Part shown: one piece after another, positions 4,632 to 55,003 of the stretch
Layout: each line of letters starts with the position of its first letter
Position numbering within the stretch: the stretch's first letter is position 1
From: Candidatus Hydrogenedentota bacterium
Lineage (GTDB): Bacteria; Hydrogenedentota; Hydrogenedentia; Hydrogenedentales; SLHB01
Reading direction: 5' to 3'
DNA: 64,000 bases
NCBI GenBank assembly: GCA_045863295.1
Contig: BTWA01000007.1
Coordinates: 77,889-141,888, forward strand
The notes under the pieces: generated by a model
Database searches by the model: none
What the model was told of the DNA's origin: nothing
Seen by the model: the letters and a program-made list of their open reading frames with translations, nothing else
Made by a program: the position numbers and the translations under genes

Positions 4632-7124
4632 ATGAACGATCTTGGGAGTCTTGTTTCGCCAATTGCGGAGGGGTATGGCATGTACAGGGTATGGGCGGTT
4701 GGGCTCTGCGTGGTGTTGGCATTCGGCTGTTGGGCGCCTGCCTGGGCCGTCGTTCTTACAAAGGCCGTGATCGTCGCGAATCCTGCCGACGGCGTCGTCG
4801 GCAAAGCAGCCACCATGCTGCAAGAGGAACTGGAAGAGCGGTCCGGAATCAAACTCCCGATAAGCGGCAATGCCCCGGCAGACTCACCGGCCATTTTCAT
4901 CGGCACGGTGGATACATTGGACGGTGTAAACGTTCCGGAGCAACCGGAGTCGTACGGAATCGCGGTCTCCGGCGACGTCGTAAAGCTGGTGGGCCGCGAT
5001 GCGCGCGGGGCCATGTTTGCGGCGGGGAGATTCATTCGTCTGGCGAATTACCCGGGCCAAACGCTCACGGTCGATCTGTCCGCCCCGATTGCGACAGCAC
5101 CCGACGTGCCCATTCGCGCTCATCAGTTGGCGTATCGCAATACAGCCAATACCTATGACGCATGGACCGTCGAGATGTACGAGCAGTATATCCGCGATCT
5201 CATCTTTTTCGGCTGCAACGGCGTCGAACTAATACCCAGTTATGATCCGGATACCAAAGACGGCCCCGTGATGACTGAATCCATGCATGCCATGAATGTA
5301 AAGCTCTCCGGCCTGATTCGTTCGTATGGCATCGATGTCTGGCTCTGGTCGCCCGTAATGGCGGAACCGGGTGAAGACGTGACTACACCCGATGGAGCCA
5401 AGGAGGCGATTGCCAAGCGCCTGACAGTCTTCAAGGACTATCCAGCCATTGATCATCTCTTTGTGCCCGGTGGTGATGACGGTGACGCTCCGGCAGAACA
5501 CTTGGTGCCGTTTCTCAAGGAATTGTCCGGCTCGTTGAAGGAGATGCATCCCAACGCAAAAATCTGGATTTCTAACCAGACCTTTACGATTGAAGAAAAC
5601 AACTACTTCTTTGACTACCTCAGGAATGAGAAACCGGAATGGCTGACCGGCGTCGTCTATGGGCCATGGACAAAAATGGGGTTGGCGGAAATGCGAGAGC
5701 GCACCCCAGATTCATTTCAGATGCGGCTGTATCCCGATATCAATCATACGACCCGATGCCAGTATCCAATTCCCGAGTGGGACCCCGCCTTCGCCATGAC
5801 AGAGGGCCGGGAACCGGTTATGCCCATGGCCGCGATGCAAAAGCACATCTACCTCATGGATCGCGGTCTCTCCAACGGATTCGGCACCTACTCCGACGGC
5901 ATCCACGACGATCTGAACAAGGTCGTGTGGAGCGCATACGGGTGGGATCCAAAAACCGATCTCGATGCCTTGCTGATTGAATACGGAAAAGTATGGTGGG
6001 GACCGGACGCCGCCGCCGATGTCGCCCGCGGACTTAAAATGCTGGAAGACGATTGGAAAGGCCCTATCCTGGAAAATACGACCATTCCTGAAACGCGCGC
6101 GCTTTGGGAAAACATCTCCAAGGGCCGCCCCGACTTTAACGCAAACTGGCGTGCCCAAATGTATCTGTTCCGCGCGCGCTACGACGAATACGTACAGAAA
6201 AAGGCGGCCGCGGAGGCAAAATACGAAAAGGAAGCGCTGGAAACGCTGGCGAAAACGCGGGAAACCGGAGTGGCTAAAGCCATCGCAGGTGCGAAGGCCG
6301 CACTCGCCAAAGCAGACACACCCGCCGATACCGGCTTGCGGAAACTAATCGAAGGACTTGGGCCGGTCATGCTCAAGAGCATTGGCTATCAGTTGAGTGT
6401 GAAACCGCCCTACCTCGCGCGTAACCCCGAGCGGGGAGCCATGCTGGATTGGCTGGATCAGCCGATTAACGATCGGCCTTGGCTGGAACAACGATTTGCC
6501 GCGATACAAGCTATGGAGACTGAGGAACAGCAGGTGGCGGCCATTGACGAAATCGTCCACTGGTCTGACCCAGGGTCCGGAGGTTTCTACGACAATCTCG
6601 GCGCAGTCGGCCAGTACAAACACGTGGTGCGGCAAAAGTCGTGGGAAGAAGACCCCTCCGCCACAAACTCGCCCCGAGTCGCATTCGTCAATTATAAGGC
6701 GGATAAAGAGGCCATCCAGGCCATAAATGCAGTGGCCGACGACGCAAACGTGGCTTTTAAGGACGAAAAGACGAAACAGTCGCCCCAGACCGCGCAAGGC
6801 CGCCAGGAATTGCGTATGTCCTGGCAGTCACAGATAACGACGCAGTTCGGCACGCCGTTGAAGATGCGCTATGAGGGCCTGGATCCCAATGCAACCTATT
6901 CGCTCAAGGTCACCTATGCCGGACGATACAAGCCAACCATGACACTGACATTAAACGAAATGATGAGCATCCACGGACCCGTGCCACAGCCGGATCCCAT
7001 CTGGCCGGTCACTTATTACATACCGCAAGCCGCCACGAAGAGCGGCACGCTCGACCTGGAATGGGATCTGGTGGAAGGGCGCGGTTGCATGGTGGGTGAA
7101 GTCTGGCTTATCAAGAATAAATAA
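4632..7124 (+). CDS. Putative secreted glycoside hydrolase-like protein, paralog A (GH20/GH67/GH89/GH115-like N-terminal alpha/beta domain + TIM-barrel-like region; family unassigned)
   Basis: 830-aa ORF. The alternative start at 4680 (MYRVWAVGLCVVLAFGCWAPAWA) gives a signal peptide. It shares clear paralogy with the next gene (RAHQLAYRNTANTYDAWTVEMYEQYIRDLIFFGCNGVELIP vs RGHQIGFRNTANSYDAWDIATYEQYIRDCAIFGGNSVELIP; VPGGDDGDAP vs VPGGDPGHTDP; C-terminal ...GRGCMVGEVWLIKNK vs ...GRGCQVAEVWLIKTDG). The hydrolase assignment is inferred from architecture and context only. Confidence 0.55.
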   Translation: MNDLGSLVSPIAEGYGMYRVWAVGLCVVLAFGCWAPAWAVVLTKAVIVANPADGVVGKAATMLQEELEERSGIKLPISGNAPADSPAIFIGTVDTLDGVNVPEQPESYGIAVSGDVVKLVGRDARGAMFAAGRFIRLANYPGQTLTVDLSAPIATAPDVPIRAHQLAYRNTANTYDAWTVEMYEQYIRDLIFFGCNGVELIPSYDPDTKDGPVMTESMHAMNVKLSGLIRSYGIDVWLWSPVMAEPGEDVTTPDGAKEAIAKRLTVFKDYPAIDHLFVPGGDDGDAPAEHLVPFLKELSGSLKEMHPNAKIWISNQTFTIEENNYFFDYLRNEKPEWLTGVVYGPWTKMGLAEMRERTPDSFQMRLYPDINHTTRCQYPIPEWDPAFAMTEGREPVMPMAAMQKHIYLMDRGLSNGFGTYSDGIHDDLNKVVWSAYGWDPKTDLDALLIEYGKVWWGPDAAADVARGLKMLEDDWKGPILENTTIPETRALWENISKGRPDFNANWRAQMYLFRARYDEYVQKKAAAEAKYEKEALETLAKTRETGVAKAIAGAKAALAKADTPADTGLRKLIEGLGPVMLKSIGYQLSVKPPYLARNPERGAMLDWLDQPINDRPWLEQRFAAIQAMETEEQQVAAIDEIVHWSDPGSGGFYDNLGAVGQYKHVVRQKSWEEDPSATNSPRVAFVNYKADKEAIQAINAVADDANVAFKDEKTKQSPQTAQGRQELRMSWQSQITTQFGTPLKMRYEGLDPNATYSLKVTYAGRYKPTMTLTLNEMMSIHGPVPQPDPIWPVTYYIPQAATKSGTLDLEWDLVEGRGCMVGEVWLIKNK

Positions 7125-7167
7125 TTGGGCTTGGCGATACTTCACTGTTTCGAAGGGGGATAAGGGT

Positions 7168-9555
7168 ATGCGAAACTTCGGAGTCGGTCTACTGATTCTG
7201 GCCATCGCGTGTAGTAGTGGCATGGAGACTGCTCAAGCGGATGACGCCCTGGATTTGTCCAAGGCGTCCATAGTCGTAATGAAAGGCGACCCCCAGCTTG
7301 AAAAGACCACAACCATGTTGCAGGAGGAGATTGGACGGCGAACCGGTGTGGAAATGCGCGTGGCGGAAACAGTCTCCGGGCCCACGATCATTCTGGGCAC
7401 CGCAACGGGCTTGCCTGCGGGCGTTTCGTTGCCGGCCGAAGTGGTGGTGCCGGAAGCCCCCGAGGGATTCGCGGTGGGGGTCAGCGGTGAAGCTCTCTAC
7501 CTCATAGGATTCGATACGCGAGGCGCCCTATTCGCTGTGGGACACTTCATCCGAAAGGCCAACCTTTCCAAGGGAAGGGTGTCCATTCCTGCCAGCATAA
7601 ACGTATCGACAGCACCCAAGTATCCCATTCGCGGTCACCAAATAGGTTTTCGGAATACCGCCAACAGCTACGACGCGTGGGATATTGCCACATACGAACA
7701 GTATATTCGCGATTGTGCGATCTTCGGCGGCAACTCGGTGGAACTCATACCCAATTTTGATATGGAAGAAAAGGAAGGCCCTGTGATGAAAGAGCCGCAG
7801 GAGCCAATGAATATCAAAATTGCGGGTGTGCTCAATGCCTATGGCCTCGATCTATGGCTGTGGCTGCCGCTCAACGAAGATGTGACCAAACGCGACGAAT
7901 GGGAGCAAGCCTTGAGCGATCGTGATTTACTCTTTTCCCGCTACCCCGCCATCAGCCACATTATGGTGCCCGGCGGCGATCCTGGCCATACCGATCCGAA
8001 AGACCTGATGCCGTGGATGGCCGAAATGGCGCCCATTCTGCGAAAGCACTTTCCGAACGCCGGTGTATGGGTGTCGAACCAAGGCTTCACGGCGGAACAA
8101 AACGATGTCTTCTTTGGTCACCTGCGCGACAATAAACCAGACTGGTTTACCGGGGTCGTGATGGGGCCATGGGCGAAAATCAGTGAAAAAGAGTTGCGGG
8201 AAGCCACACCCGAACAGTATCCGGTGCGCCGTTACCCCGACATCACCCACAATGTGCGGTGCCAATATCCGGTGCCGGATTGGGATCGCGCGTTTGCATT
8301 GACGTTGGGCCGCGAAGCAGCCAACCCCCGTCCGGAAGATACCGCGCACATTCACAACCTGTACGCGCCATTTGCAGACGGGTTTGTCTCCTATTCGGAT
8401 GGTTGCCACGACGATCTGAACAAGATGATCTGGAGTGCGCTCGGTTGGAATCCGGATGCCAATATCGACGAAATTCTGGAAGATTACGGCCGAGTGTTCA
8501 TGGGCGATGCCTATGCGAAAGACATTGCCAAGGGACTGCGCATGCTGGAACAAAACTGGCGCGGCCCCGCCCTGGCGAACGAAGGGATTGACGATACGGT
8601 CAAGCACTGGCTGGCCATCGAAGACCGTTCCAACGGCGAGTTGAAGGGTAACTGGCGGTTCCAACTGCATCTATTGCGCGCCGTATTCGACGCTTATACG
8701 CGCGAACGGCTATTGGCCGAAACAAAACAGGAAAGAAAAATCTATGAAGCGCTCGCTGCGTCACTGGACAATCCAGCCAAGGCGCTCGCCGATGCGGAGG
8801 CGATACTTAACGACGAATCGATGATTAAGGTCCGGCCAGACTTGCGCGCCCGGATTGTCGAACTGTGCGAGGCTATGCTCCAAAGCATCGGCTTCCAGTA
8901 TTCGATGTTTCCTCCATACTTCGCCCCCAGTTCCGAACGGGGTGCCTTTCTGGATCAGATTGACCGCCCACTCAACGATCGATTGTGGCTCTCGGCGCAG
9001 TTTGCCGAAATCCGCTCCATGAACGCTGACGAGGAAAAGAAGGATCGACTTCACCGGATCGTGAACTGGGAGAATCCGGGGCCGGGGTCATTTTACGATG
9101 ACCTTGGACACGTGGGGCGCCAGCCTCATCTCGTAAAACAAACTGACTTCAAGGACGATCCGGGATTTGTCCACGGACCGCAAAGCGAGCACAGCTTGGG
9201 CTTTGACCGATCGAACGCCGAGTCGCTGGACCTCCGGCTGTCCTGGATCGATCAGGGACAAACCCTCTTCGGCGCTCCCCTGAAAATGCACTACGAAGGA
9301 CTGGACAAAGACGCCACGTATCGCGTTCGCGTTACCTATGCCGGCCGCTTCAAACCGACCGTGCGGCTCGTCGCCGACGGAATACACGAAATCCACCCTG
9401 ACCTCTCCCAGCCACTGCCCATTTGGCCCGTGGAATACGACGTCCCCAAAGCCGCTACCCAGGATGGTTCCCTGGATCTGGAATGGCAACTCAAACCCGA
9501 CGCGGGACGCGGCTGTCAGGTTGCGGAGGTCTGGCTCATCAAAACGGACGGCTGA
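7168..9555 (+). CDS. Putative secreted glycoside hydrolase-like protein, paralog B (tandem duplicate of the preceding gene)
   Basis: Track ORF 7096..9555 overlaps the previous gene. The internal ATG at 7168 (MRNFGVGLLILAIACSSG, signal peptide) is preceded by the purine-rich stretch aagggggataaggg. Collinear similarity to paralog A runs over the full length. Confidence 0.55.
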   Translation: MRNFGVGLLILAIACSSGMETAQADDALDLSKASIVVMKGDPQLEKTTTMLQEEIGRRTGVEMRVAETVSGPTIILGTATGLPAGVSLPAEVVVPEAPEGFAVGVSGEALYLIGFDTRGALFAVGHFIRKANLSKGRVSIPASINVSTAPKYPIRGHQIGFRNTANSYDAWDIATYEQYIRDCAIFGGNSVELIPNFDMEEKEGPVMKEPQEPMNIKIAGVLNAYGLDLWLWLPLNEDVTKRDEWEQALSDRDLLFSRYPAISHIMVPGGDPGHTDPKDLMPWMAEMAPILRKHFPNAGVWVSNQGFTAEQNDVFFGHLRDNKPDWFTGVVMGPWAKISEKELREATPEQYPVRRYPDITHNVRCQYPVPDWDRAFALTLGREAANPRPEDTAHIHNLYAPFADGFVSYSDGCHDDLNKMIWSALGWNPDANIDEILEDYGRVFMGDAYAKDIAKGLRMLEQNWRGPALANEGIDDTVKHWLAIEDRSNGELKGNWRFQLHLLRAVFDAYTRERLLAETKQERKIYEALAASLDNPAKALADAEAILNDESMIKVRPDLRARIVELCEAMLQSIGFQYSMFPPYFAPSSERGAFLDQIDRPLNDRLWLSAQFAEIRSMNADEEKKDRLHRIVNWENPGPGSFYDDLGHVGRQPHLVKQTDFKDDPGFVHGPQSEHSLGFDRSNAESLDLRLSWIDQGQTLFGAPLKMHYEGLDKDATYRVRVTYAGRFKPTVRLVADGIHEIHPDLSQPLPIWPVEYDVPKAATQDGSLDLEWQLKPDAGRGCQVAEVWLIKTDG

Positions 9556-9794: not shown

Positions 9795-10070
9795 ATGAAC
9801 ATCTATGTGGGAAATCTCTCGTACGACACGCAGAACGAAGACCTGCGCGAAGCGTTTGAACGTCACGGCGAAGTGACCGACGCGCGCGTTGCCTTCGACC
9901 GTGAAACCCGCCGTTCGCGCGGCTTCGGTTTCGTCGAAATGGCAAATGACGGTGAAGCCCGCGCGGCCATCGACAGTCTGAACGGCACCGACCTTCAAGG
10001 CCGTACCATCAAGGTGAACGAAGCGCGTCCCCGTGAAGAGCGGTCCAGCTCGCGCGGCGGCCGGTACTAG
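9795..10070 (+). CDS. RNA-binding protein with a single RRM domain (glycine/arginine-rich tail)
   Basis: RNP-2 IYVGNL and RNP-1 RGFGFVEM motifs, a 91-aa size, and a C-terminal RSSSRGGRY tail are typical of bacterial Rbp-type RRM proteins. Confidence 0.9.
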   Translation: MNIYVGNLSYDTQNEDLREAFERHGEVTDARVAFDRETRRSRGFGFVEMANDGEARAAIDSLNGTDLQGRTIKVNEARPREERSSSRGGRY

Positions 10071-10087
10071 TCAGATTCGAAATGCGC

Positions 10088-10130
10088 GCGGGGTACTGGG
10101 CTCAAAGCCCGGTACCCCGCTCTTCATTTT
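10088..10130 (+). terminator. Stem-loop (9-bp perfect stem gcggggtac/gtaccccgc with inner extension) followed by TCTTCATTTTC; likely intrinsic terminator of the RRM gene
   Basis: Inverted repeat 10088-10096 / 10112-10120 read directly from the sequence, with a T-rich tract 10121-10130. It sits 18 nt after the RRM stop. Confidence 0.5.
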
Positions 10131-10155
10131 CACGCGCCCTGAGCCGGTGTCCGAC

Positions 10156-11136
10156 TTACGTCCGGGCCTTGGCCGGCGCTGGCACAAATGGATCGCTGAA
10201 AATCTCCTGGAGACTAGCCCCGGCCAGAAACGCCTTCCTGTGCATGGATGTTACCAATTCAGGGGCTCCGCAAAGGAACACTCTCCAACCCTTCAACGTC
10301 CCGACCGTCGAAAGCGCATGCTGTTCAATTGCGCCCACATGGACATCGTCCTCCGCGGGCCCATCAAGCACACAGGGATGGTAGTAAAAGCATTCGTGCA
10401 ATTCCGAAAGCTCTCGAAGTTCGTCCACAAGATAGAGCCCTTCCCTGCGAAGACTTCCGTGGAACAAATGGATAGGACCCGTATGCCCGCCAAGAATCGC
10501 ATCACGGGCAATGGCAAAGAGCGGTGCCAGCCCGGTGCCCGTGCCCAACAGTAAAATGGGCTGCTCGGGCTTGCCCGGCACATAAAAACAGTTGCCGTTG
10601 GGACCCTGTAGCGTAACCTTGTCTCCCGGCTGTGCGCCGTCCGAAACCCAGCCGCTCATGGCGCCCCCGGGAATCAAGGCCATATGAAAGAGCAAATCGC
10701 CATCCAATTCAGGCACACTGGCTATGGAATAACTGCGCGATACGCCGTGACCATTGATTATCGTCACGTATTGGCCGCCCCAGTATTCCTTCATGTCAGG
10801 CGCGGACACGCGTAATTCAATCACCTTCTCCGACAGCTGCCGTTTGGATTGAATCACGCCCTCATACCGGAACCCGTCGCCCGGCATAACCACGCGCAAA
10901 TCGCTTTCCGGCTTACAGCGGCACGCGAGAAAAAAGTGTTGTGCCTTGAGCGTATCCTTTAATCCCGACTGCGATTCGACTGGAGGTACACCCTCAATCG
11001 CGCGCATAAGGCAGGATTTGCACACGCCGCTCCGGCATGAACTCGGCACCGAATGGCCGTGCCGCTCCAACGTTTCGAGAACGGTCTCACCATCGGCGAT
11101 CTCGCAGGTGCTGTCCGCGAATAGTACCCTGGCCAT
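10156..11136 (-). CDS. Oxidoreductase with N-terminal [2Fe-2S] ferredoxin domain plus FAD/NAD(P)-binding ferredoxin-reductase-type domains
   Basis: A Cys cluster SCRSGVCKSC...C is typical of plant-type 2Fe-2S ferredoxin. RSYSIAS matches the FAD-binding RxYS motif and LLLGTGTGLAPL the NAD(P)-binding motif. The start is chosen at the internal Met (MARVLFADST, 11136) rather than track 11193, which would overlap the upstream gene by 44 nt. Confidence 0.8.
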   Translation of the reverse strand: MARVLFADSTCEIADGETVLETLERHGHSVPSSCRSGVCKSCLMRAIEGVPPVESQSGLKDTLKAQHFFLACRCKPESDLRVVMPGDGFRYEGVIQSKRQLSEKVIELRVSAPDMKEYWGGQYVTIINGHGVSRSYSIASVPELDGDLLFHMALIPGGAMSGWVSDGAQPGDKVTLQGPNGNCFYVPGKPEQPILLLGTGTGLAPLFAIARDAILGGHTGPIHLFHGSLRREGLYLVDELRELSELHECFYYHPCVLDGPAEDDVHVGAIEQHALSTVGTLKGWRVFLCGAPELVTSMHRKAFLAGASLQEIFSDPFVPAPAKART

Positions 11137-11149
11137 CGGATGGATTGGC

Positions 11150-11515
11150 CTACCGGCCAAGCACGTCGGCCCGGGTCGTTTCGACAATGGCAAGCACTTC
11201 GTCGATGTCTTTTCTGGGCACGTTGAGTTCGGTCAGCGCTTTGGAAAGATTCTCAGCCACGGCGTTGAAATGAGTGTCGTTCAGCCCCTTTGCAACCAGC
11301 GCGGCATGCGCACCACGCATGTCTTTGCCGGAATACGCGTGCGGCCCGCCAAAAGCAAGCGTCATGAAAGCCTTTTGCTTGGCCGCCTGCCGCTCCATGT
11401 CTATCCCGTCGAACCAGAAATTAATCCGATCATCGGAAAGGACATGCCGGTAAAATACGTCAACCGCGGCGTCTACTGCCGCTTCTCCGCCCAATCGTTC
11501 ATACAAGGTGCTCAT
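11150..11515 (-). CDS. Truncated haemoglobin (group I, trHbN-like globin)
   Basis: MSTLYERLGGEAAVDAAVDVFYRHVLSDDRINFWF... fits the 2-on-2 globin N-terminal pattern. The track ORF 11150..11632 has a 39-aa low-complexity leader, so the internal ATG at 11515 is preferred. Confidence 0.75.
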   Translation of the reverse strand: MSTLYERLGGEAAVDAAVDVFYRHVLSDDRINFWFDGIDMERQAAKQKAFMTLAFGGPHAYSGKDMRGAHAALVAKGLNDTHFNAVAENLSKALTELNVPRKDIDEVLAIVETTRADVLGR

Positions 11516-11561
11516 GCGCAATCTCCCCCTGGTGAAAATCAAACTCGACACATGTAAACTA

Positions 11562-11584
11562 AAGATATATAATATATACATGTT
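11562..11584. promoter_or_regulatory. Imperfect 11-1-11 palindrome AAGATATATAA-T-ATATACATGTT in the divergent intergenic region; candidate NsrR/Rrf2 operator overlapping AT-rich -10-like elements
   Basis: Read directly from the sequence. The right half ATATACATGTT resembles the NsrR half-site AAATACATnTT, and ACATGT occurs twice (11550-11555 and 11578-11583). It lies between the trHb operon start (11515, minus) and the Rrf2 gene start (11656, plus). Confidence 0.35.
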
Positions 11585-11655
11585 TTGCGCCGCGATGTCA
11601 ACCAAGCCTCGCACCGTGCTATACTGTCCCACCGGTGGGTAGTAAGGAAGACGGT

Positions 11656-12090
11656 ATGCATTTGACGCTTTATACGGATTACAGCCTCCGGCTCTTGCTA
11701 TTTCTCGCCATTCAACCCGAAGGGGCCACCATCACCGAAGTCGCCGAACGTTACGGAATCTCCAGAAACCATCTGGTCCGCATTGTTCACGATCTCGGAA
11801 AGAAGGGATGGATCGCCACTGAGCGGGGGAGAGGGGGGGGCATCAAGTTAGCCAAAGACCCCGGCGAAATCAATCTCGGATCGGTGGTACGCGATATGGA
11901 ACCGTTTCAAATAGTCGAATGTTTCAATGCCATATCAAACACCTGTGTAATCGCACCGTCGTGTCTAATGAAAAAAGTGCTCGCCGACGCGGCCGAAGCC
12001 TTTCTGGCCGAACTTGAAAAGTACACGCTTGCCGATCTGATCAAGAACAAAAAGATGTTGTCAAAACACCTGATCGAGCTGGCATCATGA
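11656..12090 (+). CDS. Rrf2-family transcriptional regulator (NsrR/IscR-like, three conserved Cys for an Fe-S cluster)
   Basis: The N-terminal winged-HTH region MHLTLYTDYSLRLLLFLA is typical of Rrf2. The C-x8-C-x5-C cluster ECFNAISNTCVIAPSC is consistent with an Fe-S ligand set. An SD-like aaggaag sits 6 nt upstream of ATG 11656; the track start 11635 is a GTG. Confidence 0.8.
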   Translation: MHLTLYTDYSLRLLLFLAIQPEGATITEVAERYGISRNHLVRIVHDLGKKGWIATERGRGGGIKLAKDPGEINLGSVVRDMEPFQIVECFNAISNTCVIAPSCLMKKVLADAAEAFLAELEKYTLADLIKNKKMLSKHLIELAS

Positions 12091-12104
12091 CCGTGCATTG
12101 ACGT

Positions 12105-13052
12105 TTACTCTTTGCCCATCGTGTTCCTCAGGGTGCCGATTCCGTCTACGCTGGCTTCGATCACGTCCCCGTTTTTCAAATAACGGCCGGTAGCCATTGC
12201 CACGCCGGAAGGCGTCCCCGTGGATATGATATCGCCGGCATGCAGTGTTACCGATTGCGTGATGAACGCGATTACCGCGGCCACCGGAAACACCATTTGC
12301 GCGGTAAGGGCGTTCTGCCGGATCTCGCCATTCACCGTAAGCTTCAACCCCAGCGTCTGCGGATCCGGAATGGCCTTGGCGGAAGTCACGCACGGTCCGA
12401 TCGGGCAGAAGCCGTCATGCCACTTGCCGTGCAGCCAGTCGAAAAACGGGTCGCGCTCCCGCTTCTTGCGATTCGGGAACGGACGATATACGCGATCAGA
12501 TATGTCATTGACCACCGTATACCCCGCCACAAAGTCCAGCGCATTGCCTTCATTCGCATGCTTGCAAGTCTTGCCGATCACCACTGCCAACTCGCATTCA
12601 TAGTCAATATGATCCGGTGAGACGCGGGGAATGAGCACCGGCGCATTCGGATGATTGACCGTTGTAACCGGTTTCATGAACACGTAGGGAAACGTTTCTT
12701 CCCGCTCCACTTCAGCCTCGCCGCCTTCTTTGATGTGTTCGACATAATTGCCCGCGAGCAACAGTATCTTTCCCGGCGAAGGAATGGGACTCTGCAGCGT
12801 AATGCCGTCCACCGGCACGGACAGCGCCTGCTTTTCAGCGGGATTCGCGTCCAGCCATGCTGAGACGGCATGGGCAACGTCTGCCTTTGCGCCGCCCGGA
12901 AGCAATTCCATAATCTCCGTTGCACTCAGGTCGGCATCCCGACCGGCCTTTGCCTTGTATGCACCAGAGGCATCGGACAGCGGCACAACGGTGTCGTCGT
13001 AGTAATAGCCGAACGACGGCTGGCTGTTCTTCAAAAAGCGGCAAATACGCAT
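12105..13052 (-). CDS. Fumarylacetoacetate hydrolase (FAH) family protein
   Basis: The FAH-fold signature region KILLLAGNYVEHIKEGG...DYECELAVVIGK...GDIISTGTPSGV runs the full length of the 315-aa product. Confidence 0.85.
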   Translation of the reverse strand: MRICRFLKNSQPSFGYYYDDTVVPLSDASGAYKAKAGRDADLSATEIMELLPGGAKADVAHAVSAWLDANPAEKQALSVPVDGITLQSPIPSPGKILLLAGNYVEHIKEGGEAEVEREETFPYVFMKPVTTVNHPNAPVLIPRVSPDHIDYECELAVVIGKTCKHANEGNALDFVAGYTVVNDISDRVYRPFPNRKKRERDPFFDWLHGKWHDGFCPIGPCVTSAKAIPDPQTLGLKLTVNGEIRQNALTAQMVFPVAAVIAFITQSVTLHAGDIISTGTPSGVAMATGRYLKNGDVIEASVDGIGTLRNTMGKE

Positions 13053-15938: not shown

Positions 15939-17645
15939 ATGACCAGCGGATTGGCGGCGGCGGATTACACCATACTCGCCGGATTCTTCATTGTGCTCCT
16001 TGCGATCGGCCTGTTCTACTCCGGACGTATGAGCACCCTGCGCGATTTTTTCAGCGGCGGACGCCACGTGCCTTGGTGGCTCGCCGGCATATCCCTGTAC
16101 ATGACCACCTTCAGCGCGTTTACATTCGTTTCCTATTCCGCACTGGCATACAAGCACGGCTTCGTGGCGGTGGCCATTTGGTGGTTTTCCATTCCGGGCT
16201 GCCTGTTGAGCGCCTGGTTCCTGGCTTCCCGATGGAGGCGCGCCGCCAGTACAAGTCCCGTCGAGTACCTGGAAACGCGGTACGGGCATGTACTCCGTCA
16301 GTCGTTCAGTTGGTTTGGCATTCCATTGATCGTGCTCGACGACGCATTGAAGTTGTATGTCATCGGCACCATGATGCGTGTGAGCATGGGGTTCGAAAGT
16401 GACAGCGCCATCAATTGGATTATTCTCTTCTGTGGAATAATCATGGTGCTTTACACGCTTCTGGGCGGCCTATGGGCCGTGCTCATCACCGACTTTATTC
16501 AGTTTGTCGTGATGGGGGTCGCCGTGCTCGTTTTATTGCCGCTGACATGGCGCAGGGCAGGAGGCATGGGCGCAATCGCCGATCACCTTCCCACAGGCTT
16601 TGGAGACATCACCGTTGAAACCTACACCTGGCCATGGCTGCTCTCCTTCGCGGTCGTCCTAGCGCTTACCTTCGCCACGAAGTGGCCCTATGTGCAGCGT
16701 TACTACGCCGCGCGCACCGATCAGGAAGCGCGCTGGGTCGGCTACCTCGTCGCCGCGCTCACCCTGCTCGGACCTCCGTTGTTGTTCTTTCCGGCATTCG
16801 GCGCACGCGTCTACCTGCCCGAAGTCGCGGACGCAAATCAGGTCTATGCCCTGCTCTGCAAGGAACTGCTGCCGGCGGGACTCATGGGTATGATGATCGC
16901 CGCCATGTTCTCCGCCACCATGTCCATGCTCTCCAGCGATTACAATTCCGTGGCTTCCGTGGTCACGAACGATATCGTCAAGCGGCTCTTTATGAAACAT
17001 GCATCAGAAAAGAGTCTTGTCCTCGTGGCCCGTCTTTCCACACTGGCCATCGGCCTTCTTGCCATGGGGCTCGCGCTGCTAATCGCTCAGGCAAAAACCA
17101 TGGACGACCTCGTCAAAATCATGGCACAGTTGTTTGCGGCATTGCTTCCTCCCGTGGCCCTTCCCATGGCCGCCGGTCTCTTGTGGCGCCGCGCCACCAA
17201 CGGCGGCGCGCTGATGGGGTTCGCGCTGGGTGCGACCTGCGGCATCGCCGCATCCATTGCAAGCTACACCACCGGCATGAGCTACCTCCGCGAAGTGCAG
17301 TATCTGACATGGCTCACCTTGCTGCCCACGGCCGCAGGCCTAGGACTCGGCAGTCTGCTCTTTGCGGATTCCGCCGATAAAAGCGAACAAGTGCGCAATT
17401 TCATGGACGGCCTGCAAGGCGCCACGGCGCACGTGCCCGAGCCCGCGAGCAAAACGGACGCGGCCGTGGCCATGCGCATTATCGGATTGACCACCCTGTT
17501 GTTGGGGTCATTGCTTTTCGTAAGTGTGTTGCTGACCGCGGGACTGAGTGGACGCGTCTCTCTTCTGGTGGGTCTGCTTATGGCTGCCGGCGGCATGGCA
17601 ACGTATTTGAAATCGCGCGCGATACTCGCCTGCGCTCAAGAGTGA
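15939..17645 (+). CDS. Sodium:solute symporter (SSF) family transporter
   Basis: Polytopic membrane protein with an SSF-like N-terminal pattern (YTILAGFFIVLLAIGLFYSGRMSTLRDFFSGGRHVPWWLAGISL). ATG 15939 is preferred over the TTG at 15918, with a purine-rich ggaaggg 12 nt upstream. Confidence 0.85.
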   Translation: MTSGLAAADYTILAGFFIVLLAIGLFYSGRMSTLRDFFSGGRHVPWWLAGISLYMTTFSAFTFVSYSALAYKHGFVAVAIWWFSIPGCLLSAWFLASRWRRAASTSPVEYLETRYGHVLRQSFSWFGIPLIVLDDALKLYVIGTMMRVSMGFESDSAINWIILFCGIIMVLYTLLGGLWAVLITDFIQFVVMGVAVLVLLPLTWRRAGGMGAIADHLPTGFGDITVETYTWPWLLSFAVVLALTFATKWPYVQRYYAARTDQEARWVGYLVAALTLLGPPLLFFPAFGARVYLPEVADANQVYALLCKELLPAGLMGMMIAAMFSATMSMLSSDYNSVASVVTNDIVKRLFMKHASEKSLVLVARLSTLAIGLLAMGLALLIAQAKTMDDLVKIMAQLFAALLPPVALPMAAGLLWRRATNGGALMGFALGATCGIAASIASYTTGMSYLREVQYLTWLTLLPTAAGLGLGSLLFADSADKSEQVRNFMDGLQGATAHVPEPASKTDAAVAMRIIGLTTLLLGSLLFVSVLLTAGLSGRVSLLVGLLMAAGGMATYLKSRAILACAQE

Positions 17646-54637: not shown

Positions 54638-55003
54638 CTATCTCATGGATTGGTCAAACGTCAGCCGGTTGCCAAACGGATCGACAACCTCGACGCAAAT
54701 GGAATTCCATGGCGTATTGCCAATGCCCGGCTTCATGTATGGGTTGGTCCGAGCATTCCATTCTGTGTGCAAAGCCTTTGCATCGTTCACACGAATGAAC
54801 ACCCTCGCTCCGGGAGAGCAATCGCCGTAATGCTCGGTCAGATGCAGAGTGCATGCATCTCTTGTCACTTGCATGTACCTCGGCGCGACCCCTTCAAACT
54901 GATGTTCCCATTCCAAAGCGAATCCCAGCCAATCGATGTAAAACGACTTTGCCATTGCATGGTCAAAGACTCGCAAAATGGGTATGGGCGCCATCAAGTT
55001 CAT
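54638..55003 (-). CDS. VOC (glyoxalase/bleomycin-resistance/dioxygenase) superfamily protein
   Basis: 121 aa with a beta-alpha-beta-beta-beta module pattern (ILRVFDHAMAKSFYIDWLGF...HLTEHYGD...VFIRVNDAKALHTEW) typical of small glyoxalase-fold proteins. Confidence 0.7.
   Translation of the reverse strand: MNLMAPIPILRVFDHAMAKSFYIDWLGFALEWEHQFEGVAPRYMQVTRDACTLHLTEHYGDCSPGARVFIRVNDAKALHTEWNARTNPYMKPGIGNTPWNSICVEVVDPFGNRLTFDQSMR

Follow-up and report, generated by a model that had tools for sequence, protein, structure and literature searches.

In 2005, Rodionov et al. predicted that an operon of glbN and a gene for a 'ferredoxin reductase', divergent from nsrR, is the sole NsrR target of Legionella pneumophila (supplement entry 'glbN-lpg2536(<nsrR)', site GATGTATTTcAAATACATC), and proposed an Hmp-like oxidation of nitric oxide (NO) for its two products; the promoters of hmp, hcp and ytfE gave that study its NsrR consensus, gATGyAT-N5-ATrCATc (PMC1274295). 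Gardner repeated the Legionella prediction in 2012 when treating the electron donors of truncated haemoglobins, and merely speculated that the pre-A sequence of the truncated haemoglobin HbN may help contact with a specific ferredoxin reductase (PMC3820574). This prediction and this review are all that we found in the open-access literature on lpg2536 or a reductase of group-I truncated haemoglobins (trHbN). Here we describe a cassette of the same architecture in a 64,000-nucleotide stretch of a Hydrogenedentota metagenome-assembled genome (MAG; GenBank GCA_045863295.1, contig BTWA01000007.1, positions 77,889 to 141,888), to which we refer as the window. Its three genes encode a reductase (10156-11136, minus strand), a truncated haemoglobin (11150-11515, minus strand) and an Rrf2-family regulator (11656-12090, plus strand). 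Judged from its sequence, the cassette very probably destroys toxic NO, and we put at roughly 70% the probability that it is a self-contained nitrosative-stress unit, in which NO inactivates an NsrR-type repressor and so derepresses a two-component NO dioxygenase.

The window shares with the Legionella locus a divergent nsrR gene, an operon in which a cyanoglobin-type truncated haemoglobin is followed by a reductase, and a single NsrR box upstream of glbN. The boxes themselves differ, GATGTATTTcAAATACATC in Legionella against GATATATAATATATACATG in the window, the latter being more degenerate, and so do the hosts, a gammaproteobacterium in the one case and a Hydrogenedentota MAG in the other. 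The likeness between lpg2536 and the window reductase is one of description ('hypothetical ferredoxin reductase'), and the two may or may not be orthologous and alike in domain order; Legionella is represented neither among the best 80 of 519 reductase loci nor among the protein matches listed. Architecture and hypothesis were both known already: the window holds a Hydrogenedentota example of a kind whose prediction dates back two decades and which has apparently gone untested, and the surprise is limited because the idea had been published. In a paper on Hydrogenedentota MAGs, nsrR and glbN are recorded apart from each other, and the portion of its text available to us does not mention a link between them. 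What is new here is the breadth and tightness of conservation, an operator motif that travels across phyla, and the position of the reductase as a distinct, globin-linked branch.

The cassette also resembles the flavohaemoglobin Hmp in combining a globin with an FNR-type module for flavin adenine dinucleotide (FAD) and NAD(P)H under NsrR control. E. coli Hmp (1GVH) and the reductase domain of the V. cholerae NO dioxygenase (4EH1) can both be superposed on the FAD/NAD half of the reductase model, and the NCBIfam flavohaemoprotein model matches reductase residues 94-319. Hmp is a single chain whose globin is of the 3-on-3 type; it lacks an iron-sulfur centre, and its FAD reduces the haem directly. 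The window cassette, by contrast, consists of two polypeptides, with a globin of the 2-on-2 group-I type and with an additional N-terminal [2Fe-2S] domain that would be expected to act as a relay. Of the split systems with experimental support, the nearest is Bjgb-Flp of Bradyrhizobium japonicum, whose genes belong to one operon, narK-bjgb-flp-nasC, and which acts against nitrosative stress (Cabrera et al. 2016; PMC4724949). Like the cassette, it pairs a separate haemoglobin with an FAD/NAD(P)H flavoprotein whose genes lie side by side, but Bjgb is a single-domain 3-on-3 haemoglobin, Flp is described without an iron-sulfur domain, and control is exerted by NasS-NasT (nitrate) and not by NsrR. 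The NsrR-regulated haemoglobin of Acinetobacter baumannii was considered as well and set aside as a different system, being an Hmp-derived protein (PMC11836069).

Conservation across bacterial phyla

Relatives of the cassette were collected with a profile of the reductase, taking one genome per GTDB species, and the best 80 of 519 relatives were analysed. In 77 of the 80, a globin gene lies directly upstream of the reductase gene on the same strand; the globins belong to group I and are 54-83% identical, and an Rrf2 gene (44-69% identical) is adjacent in about 65 of the 80 loci. The spacer between the globin's TAG stop and the ATG of the reductase gene, read straight off the window sequence, measures 13 nt (11137-11149, minus strand), and short gaps of 3-33 nt separate the two genes in related loci too. 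The first three contigs with a homologous reductase all carry an Rrf2 gene divergent from a Bac_globin gene that is followed by a Fer2-FNR gene, with different neighbours each time, and sampling from the globin side found the full module in three of three loci. Fusions of globin and reductase, which would lend Rosetta-stone support, were absent from the best 120 matches of either protein.

An earlier note on this DNA, made from the sequence alone, had described a group-I truncated haemoglobin with a reductase 13 nt on, and a 2Fe-2S-FAD-NAD order in the reductase with the 2Fe-2S domain at its N terminus. Pfam and PDB matches and the sequence itself agree with the former, and Pfam and fold matches with the latter. 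The note's proposal of a split, Hmp-like NO-detoxification module gains support from the synteny, seen from the reductase side (77/80) and from the globin side (3/3). Its remark that such a reductase is unusual as a globin partner was overstated, given the Legionella pair of glbN and 'ferredoxin reductase' predicted in 2005 (PMC1274295) and the wide occurrence of the cassette.

The hosts comprise Hydrogenedentota, Gamma-, Zeta- and Betaproteobacteria, Myxococcota, Acidobacteriota, Nitrospirales and Planctomycetota, and the arrangement of the genes tracks taxonomy. A divergent Rrf2 gene upstream of the pair is the arrangement of Hydrogenedentota, Gammaproteobacteria (Methylococcales, Chromatiales, Ectothiorhodospiraceae), Zetaproteobacteria, Gallionellaceae and Nitrospirales; in Myxococcota (Archangium, Hyalangium, Corallococcus, Myxococcus, Pyxidicoccus, Vitiosangium) and Acidobacteriota, the Rrf2 gene is found downstream of the pair, within one operon. 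Loci of the latter type have the order glbN-reductase-nsrR on one strand (in Myxococcota, L016, L020, L026, L029, L031, L036, L046, L049, L050, L052, L054, L066, L076, L079 and L084; in Acidobacteriota, L023, L033, L047, L069 and L081; also L087 and L088) and an NsrR box upstream of glbN. With nsrR as the third gene behind that box, the regulator is therefore part of its own target operon. One Phycisphaeraceae locus has the globin-reductase pair and no visible regulator, and two of the three loci that depart from the globin-reductase pairing, L071 and L082, keep a decayed globin remnant. Recent horizontal transfer of the window cassette was rejected on composition, the GC content of 0.51-0.59 across the cassette showing no anomaly against about 0.56 in the flanks.

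With this cassette, the range of the canonical NsrR operator and its regulator grows to include Hydrogenedentota, Myxococcota, Acidobacteriota, Nitrospirales and Planctomycetota, which aids the annotation of NO defence in uncultured lineages from nitrogen-cycling communities.

Gene products, predicted operator and alternative functions

The first gene of the operon (11150-11515, minus strand) encodes a glbN-type truncated haemoglobin of 121 aa that matches Pfam Bac_globin (PF01152) at 3.5e-19 and 69.6 bits, against a cut-off of 21. Its closest PDB match is Synechocystis cyanoglobin (3.7e-32), followed by globins of Chlamydomonas (LI637, THB1), Tetrahymena and Paramecium and by Mycobacterium tuberculosis HbN. 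Group I supplies every one of the 25 best PDB matches (to 2.3e-09), and the first matches outside it stand at 2.5e-09 (a chain deposited as 'Globin') and 5.1e-07 (a Geobacillus truncated haemoglobin); the window globin belongs to group I (trHbN / GlbN). Helix positions were assigned by ungapped alignment to Synechocystis GlbN, using the numbering of that protein. Tyr22 (B10), Gln43 (E7), Lys46 (E10), Gln47 (E11) and His70 (F8) are invariant in all 80 cassette globins, and the Gly-Gly hinges G9-G10 and G56-G57 are equally invariant, save for G56 (79/80). The protein would bind haem and have NO dioxygenase activity. HbN and THB1 are group-I truncated haemoglobins with NO dioxygenase activity, and both match the window globin (7.8e-21 and 5.3e-27, respectively). 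TyrB10 and GlnE11 are common to all three proteins and Lys E10 is present as in THB1. Unlike the window globin, which is minimal and has its own, apparently co-transcribed reductase, HbN carries a pre-A extension and lacks a dedicated adjacent reductase, and THB1 reportedly takes electrons from nitrate reductase.

Could the same regulation serve another chemistry? The globin-reductase pair might mainly reduce NO anaerobically or reduce nitrite, scavenge peroxynitrite or peroxide, or buffer O2 or NO, in a host that may live in low-oxygen habitats rich in nitrogen oxides. Truncated haemoglobins show several ligand chemistries in vitro. NO dioxygenase activity is reported to be ubiquitous and generic among haemoglobins in vitro and limited by reduction in vivo (PMC2323109), and the A. 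baumannii haemoglobin is reported to combine NO dioxygenase with NO reductase activity (PMC11836069). The name of the MAG, AMXMBFR, hints at an anammox-type bioreactor. On the other side, the invariant pocket of TyrB10, GlnE7 and GlnE11 is that of the NO-dioxygenating HbN and THB1, sustained dioxygenase turnover needs just such a dedicated NAD(P)H-linked reductase, and many cassette hosts (Myxococcota, Methylococcales, Zetaproteobacteria) are aerobes or microaerophiles. We consider another chemistry unlikely, and we retain NO dioxygenation as the presumed function of the globin in what follows.

The divergent gene (11656-12090, plus strand) encodes an Rrf2 protein of 144 aa (Pfam Rrf2, 9e-36), which we regard as a putative NsrR-like repressor. 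NsrR is its best NCBIfam model, with 148.5 bits against 103.5 for RirA and 47 for IscR. The NsrR model finds all 33 relatives of the regulator, its E-value being the best among all models (6.3e-47; RirA, 1.1e-39), and the closest solved structure is Streptomyces coelicolor NsrR (ScNsrR, 5N07; 8e-17), ahead of IscR (9e-09). Cys89, Cys97 and Cys103 are invariant among the relatives and Asp8 is at least 90% conserved; the four residues align with the ligands of the [4Fe-4S] cluster of ScNsrR in 5N07. Taken together, the regulator appears to be NsrR-like and would be released from its DNA by NO.

The DNA in question is likely to be found in the divergent control region of 140 bp between glbN and nsrR (11516-11655). 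It contains an NsrR-type 11-1-11 imperfect palindrome, AAGATATATAATATATACATGTT (11562-11584), with the structure AAGATATATAA-T-ATATACATGTT and arms that are complementary at 8 of 11 positions. A palindrome-constrained Gibbs sampler, run on 80 non-identical regions upstream of globin genes, returned the motif AAGATGTATTTAAAATACATCTT, the core of which is the published NsrR consensus; in the window, the sampler chose exactly the palindrome at 11562-11584. Scored with a matrix built from 66 sites of other genomes, with the window left out, this palindrome reaches 26.3 bits and is the top site in the 64 kb, the runner-up scoring 11.4. Over 200 Markov simulations, the highest score per 64 kb averaged 11.0 +/- 2.7 and never exceeded 18.7, and the score of the palindrome is far beyond chance. 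The motif also holds across taxa: in 38 of 44 divergent-type loci, a matrix trained on Myxococcota and Acidobacteriota finds a site that outscores the 99th percentile of shuffles, and the reverse test succeeded in 22 of 22 loci. Exact matches to the strict published consensus are present in 10 of 85 loci, one per locus, and lie just upstream of the globin in all nine of those ten that were tabulated. We infer that the palindrome is an NsrR box recognised by the regulator.

Two claims of the earlier note, a three-Cys set like that of NsrR in the divergent Rrf2 protein and an 11-1-11 palindrome resembling NsrR boxes, are thereby borne out, the first by the alignment with ScNsrR, the second by the score and by the de novo motif that contains the published consensus. 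The duplicated ACATGT that it also reported is present, at 11550-11555 and 11578-11583, but a second operator around the upstream copy (11549-11571) reaches only 3.8 bits and was rejected. Other candidates in the window were taken as chance matches, namely a relaxed consensus match (at most two mismatches) at 8904-8922, inside the open reading frame (ORF) at 7096-9555, a one-mismatch match to the NsrR consensus, GATGCAGAGTGCATGCATC, at 54841-54859, inside a glyoxalase-superfamily gene (54638-55003, minus strand; 5.4 bits), and a site at 16996 whose 11.4 bits are at the level of the simulated maximum. A repeat search of the intergenic region gave no match, the arms of the palindrome being imperfect and rich in the AT dinucleotide runs that this search skips, and an Rfam search of the leader and control region returned no structured-RNA match at E <= 1.

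It is conceivable that the Rrf2 protein senses a signal other than NO, such as iron-sulfur or iron status (as IscR and RirA), redox state (as RsrR) or nitrite, with the cassette serving iron or redox homeostasis. Rrf2 subfamilies are hard to tell apart by sequence, the NsrR score lies under the equivalog cut-off of 182, the RirA score is substantial, and the RirA model is likewise matched by 33 of 33 relatives. These points are outweighed, in our view, by the rank of NsrR as best model for the window protein and by best E-value across its relatives, by a closest solved structure that is an NsrR and not an IscR, by an operator motif identical with the NsrR consensus that numerous phyla have upstream of hmp, hcp and ytfE, and by the nature of the regulated gene, a globin of the NO-detoxifying type. 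A signal other than NO is accordingly improbable to us, and NO is kept as the presumed signal.

The second gene of the operon (10156-11136, minus strand) encodes a Fer2-FAD-NAD reductase of 326 aa, counted from its ATG. Pfam places Fer2 at residues 10-77, FAD_binding_6 at 94-185 and NAD_binding_1 at 196-298, all above the Pfam cut-offs. The ATG is the start at which 24 aligned homologues begin, with M1 nearly invariant; a TTG start further upstream, at 11193 in a mechanical ORF list, is not favoured, as the homologues align from the ATG. Cys34, Cys39, Cys42 and Cys72 of the [2Fe-2S] domain, the flavin motif R134-x-Y136-S137 and the C-terminal C289-G290 are invariant in 25 homologues, in which the nucleotide-binding stretch G198-T-G-T-G-L-A-P205 is invariant at six of eight positions and at least 90% conserved at T199-T201. 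The AlphaFold2 model of the protein has a pLDDT (predicted local distance difference test) of 93.8, and its best folds are GcoB (5OGX), at 3.2e-36 by sequence and 4.9e-28 by Foldseek, followed by BenC (1KRH), T4moF (4WQM) and CarAd (7C3A).

With GcoB, BenC, T4moF, CarAd, MmoC and DmpP, the window reductase shares domain order, cofactor motifs and fold, but it is only 24-28% identical to the three-domain reductases of oxygenases and P450s, and its conserved neighbour is a globin, not an oxygenase. It also scores below the cut-off of every named NCBIfam equivalog (PRK05713, 152 versus 338; BenC, 139 versus 430; MmoC, 137 versus 500; AntC, 102 versus 402), and because of this we set it apart as a separate, globin-linked subfamily within the three-domain class. 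GcoB, the closest solved reductase, is deposited as a cytochrome P450 reductase. It reduces the P450 haem protein GcoA directly and so provides a precedent for a reductase of this class feeding a haem protein.

What is the relevance of such a reductase? The re-reduction of truncated haemoglobins in vivo is a question that keeps returning in the NO dioxygenase field, and a reductase that accompanies a trHbN in 77 of 80 genomes, under predicted NsrR control, is a testable candidate for the missing partner and makes for a simple two-protein system for biochemistry. That the reductase is instead a co-regulated but independent enzyme, be it a flavin or ferric reductase or the partner of an oxygenase encoded elsewhere, with housekeeping systems reducing the globin, would agree with the oxygenases and P450s served by its nearest characterised relatives (GcoB, BenC, T4moF, CarAd, MmoC) and with three loci (L022, L071, L082) that have the reductase without an intact globin, yet it is hardly credible in view of the same-strand adjacency over gaps of a few to tens of nucleotides in so many genomes and phyla, the absence of a conserved oxygenase gene nearby in the loci inspected, and the globin of L071 and L082, which is visibly decayed and not absent.

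Proposed mechanism

In conjunction, these observations lead us to propose the following model for an NsrR-controlled, two-component NO dioxygenase. Without NO, a holo (iron-sulfur) dimer of the NsrR-type Rrf2 protein would occupy the single 23-bp box at 11562-11584, covering both candidate -10 hexamers and repressing the glbN-reductase operon as well as nsrR itself. NO would destroy or nitrosylate the cluster held by Cys89, Cys97 and Cys103 together with Asp8 of the other subunit, whereupon NsrR would leave the DNA and both transcripts would be made. The oxy-ferrous globin, with its pocket of TyrB10, GlnE7 and GlnE11, would turn NO and O2 into nitrate and become ferric in doing so. The reductase would then re-reduce it, electrons passing from NAD(P)H to FAD, from there to the N-terminal [2Fe-2S] cluster and on to the globin haem, and the cassette would do as two proteins what Hmp does as a single fused polypeptide. 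This mechanism is favoured by the synteny, by the small gap between the cistrons, by cofactor motifs that are intact and by the predicted NsrR control.

The positions of both promoters are candidates, derived from the sequence by comparison with consensus hexamers. For nsrR, a promoter-like TCGACA-17 nt-TATAAT (11545-11573, plus strand) agrees with the consensus at 11 of 12 positions and is the sole promoter-like match of a consensus scan of 10000-12200; its candidate -10 hexamer (11568-11573) falls inside the operator. For glbN, the sequence TTGACA (11601-11596)-17 nt-TATATA (11578-11573) on the minus strand (11573-11601) was read by eye, and here too the candidate -10 hexamer falls inside the operator; the consensus scan missed it because position 6 of its -10 hexamer is A. 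With both -10 hexamers inside the operator, one bound dimer would occlude both promoters, which would amount to repression and autoregulation at once.

We lean, by a narrow balance, towards a broader proposal as well: that the reductase is the dedicated physiological reductase of group-I truncated haemoglobins, and that with NsrR and its operator it would constitute a compact, self-regulating two-component NO dioxygenase cassette, never biochemically characterised, that would have spread to no fewer than eight bacterial phyla or classes and would act there instead of Hmp or beside it. The [2Fe-2S] cluster would in that case be the direct donor to the haem of a 2-on-2 globin, a route not described for any globin.

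Several points weigh against the NO-responsive dioxygenase cassette as proposed here. The window operator has two mismatches to GATGYAT-N5-ATRCATC and, reading GATATAT...ATACATG, deviates at strongly conserved G and C positions. In the regulator, the cysteine spacing, C-x7-C-x5-C, is unlike that of ScNsrR in the alignment, and its 148.5 bits for NsrR, as noted above, fall short of the equivalog cut-off. The glbN promoter was identified by eye only, and the consensus rules applied may not be those of Hydrogenedentota. The spacer at 11137-11149 contains no obvious Shine-Dalgarno sequence ahead of the reductase gene, and this lack suggests translational coupling of globin and reductase. The survey for further regulon members and for hmp covered the 64-kb window of the genome only. 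Finally, experimental work on a trHbN-specific reductase, on lpg2536 or on any member of the cassette was not found in the open-access literature.

Variant loci and neighbouring genes

Several related loci depart from the architecture of the window. In two gammaproteobacterial loci (L082:3625-3933 and L071:3669-3968), nsrR and the reductase gene are kept and only a remnant of the globin is left. The ORF of L082 joins an N-terminal (FNRLGGEAA) and a C-terminal (TTRSDVLGR) globin fragment, which looks like an internal deletion that has orphaned the reductase. In Zetaproteobacteria of the Mariprofundaceae (L012:3426-3929, L021:3330-3884 and L035:3338-3892), nsrR and the reductase gene are separated by a tandem pair of group-I globin genes. 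The second of these globins carries an N-terminal hydrophobic segment of about 45-60 residues (e.g., MHLETFIPAFLLFAVLGLVLPVALSS...), which suggests a membrane-anchored or exported truncated haemoglobin paralogue. In the metagenomic locus L088 (3367-4336), the reductase is called with 279 aa, comprising the FAD and NAD domains only, behind a gap of 130 nt from the globin; rather than a true two-domain variant, this is probably the outcome of a mis-called start or of a frameshift concealing Fer2.

The flanks of the window cassette are unrelated to nitrogen-oxide metabolism and encode an RRM-type RNA-binding protein, a fumarylacetoacetate-hydrolase-family protein, two large paralogous proteins and a heparinase II/III-like protein. 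The RRM-protein gene is convergent with the operon, and the space from it to the 3' end of the reductase gene holds a GC-rich hairpin of 15 pairs (10088-10120) that is likely to be a terminator at the operon boundary. A T-run follows it on the plus strand only, and termination of the minus-strand operon at this hairpin is therefore a conjecture. The RRM-type protein upstream of the hairpin (9795-10070, plus strand; 91 aa) matches the NCBIfam 'RNA-binding regulator' model with 120 bits, above its cut-off, and the hairpin lies 3' of its gene.

The two paralogous proteins (4632-7124 and 7096-9555, both plus strand) are encoded by adjacent ORFs that overlap by 29 nt, measure about 820-830 aa and have N-terminal signal-like segments. 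Their Pfam coverage is near nil, with one sub-threshold Glyco_hydro_20b match in one and none in the other, and they may represent an uncharacterised glycoside-hydrolase-like family in Hydrogenedentota.

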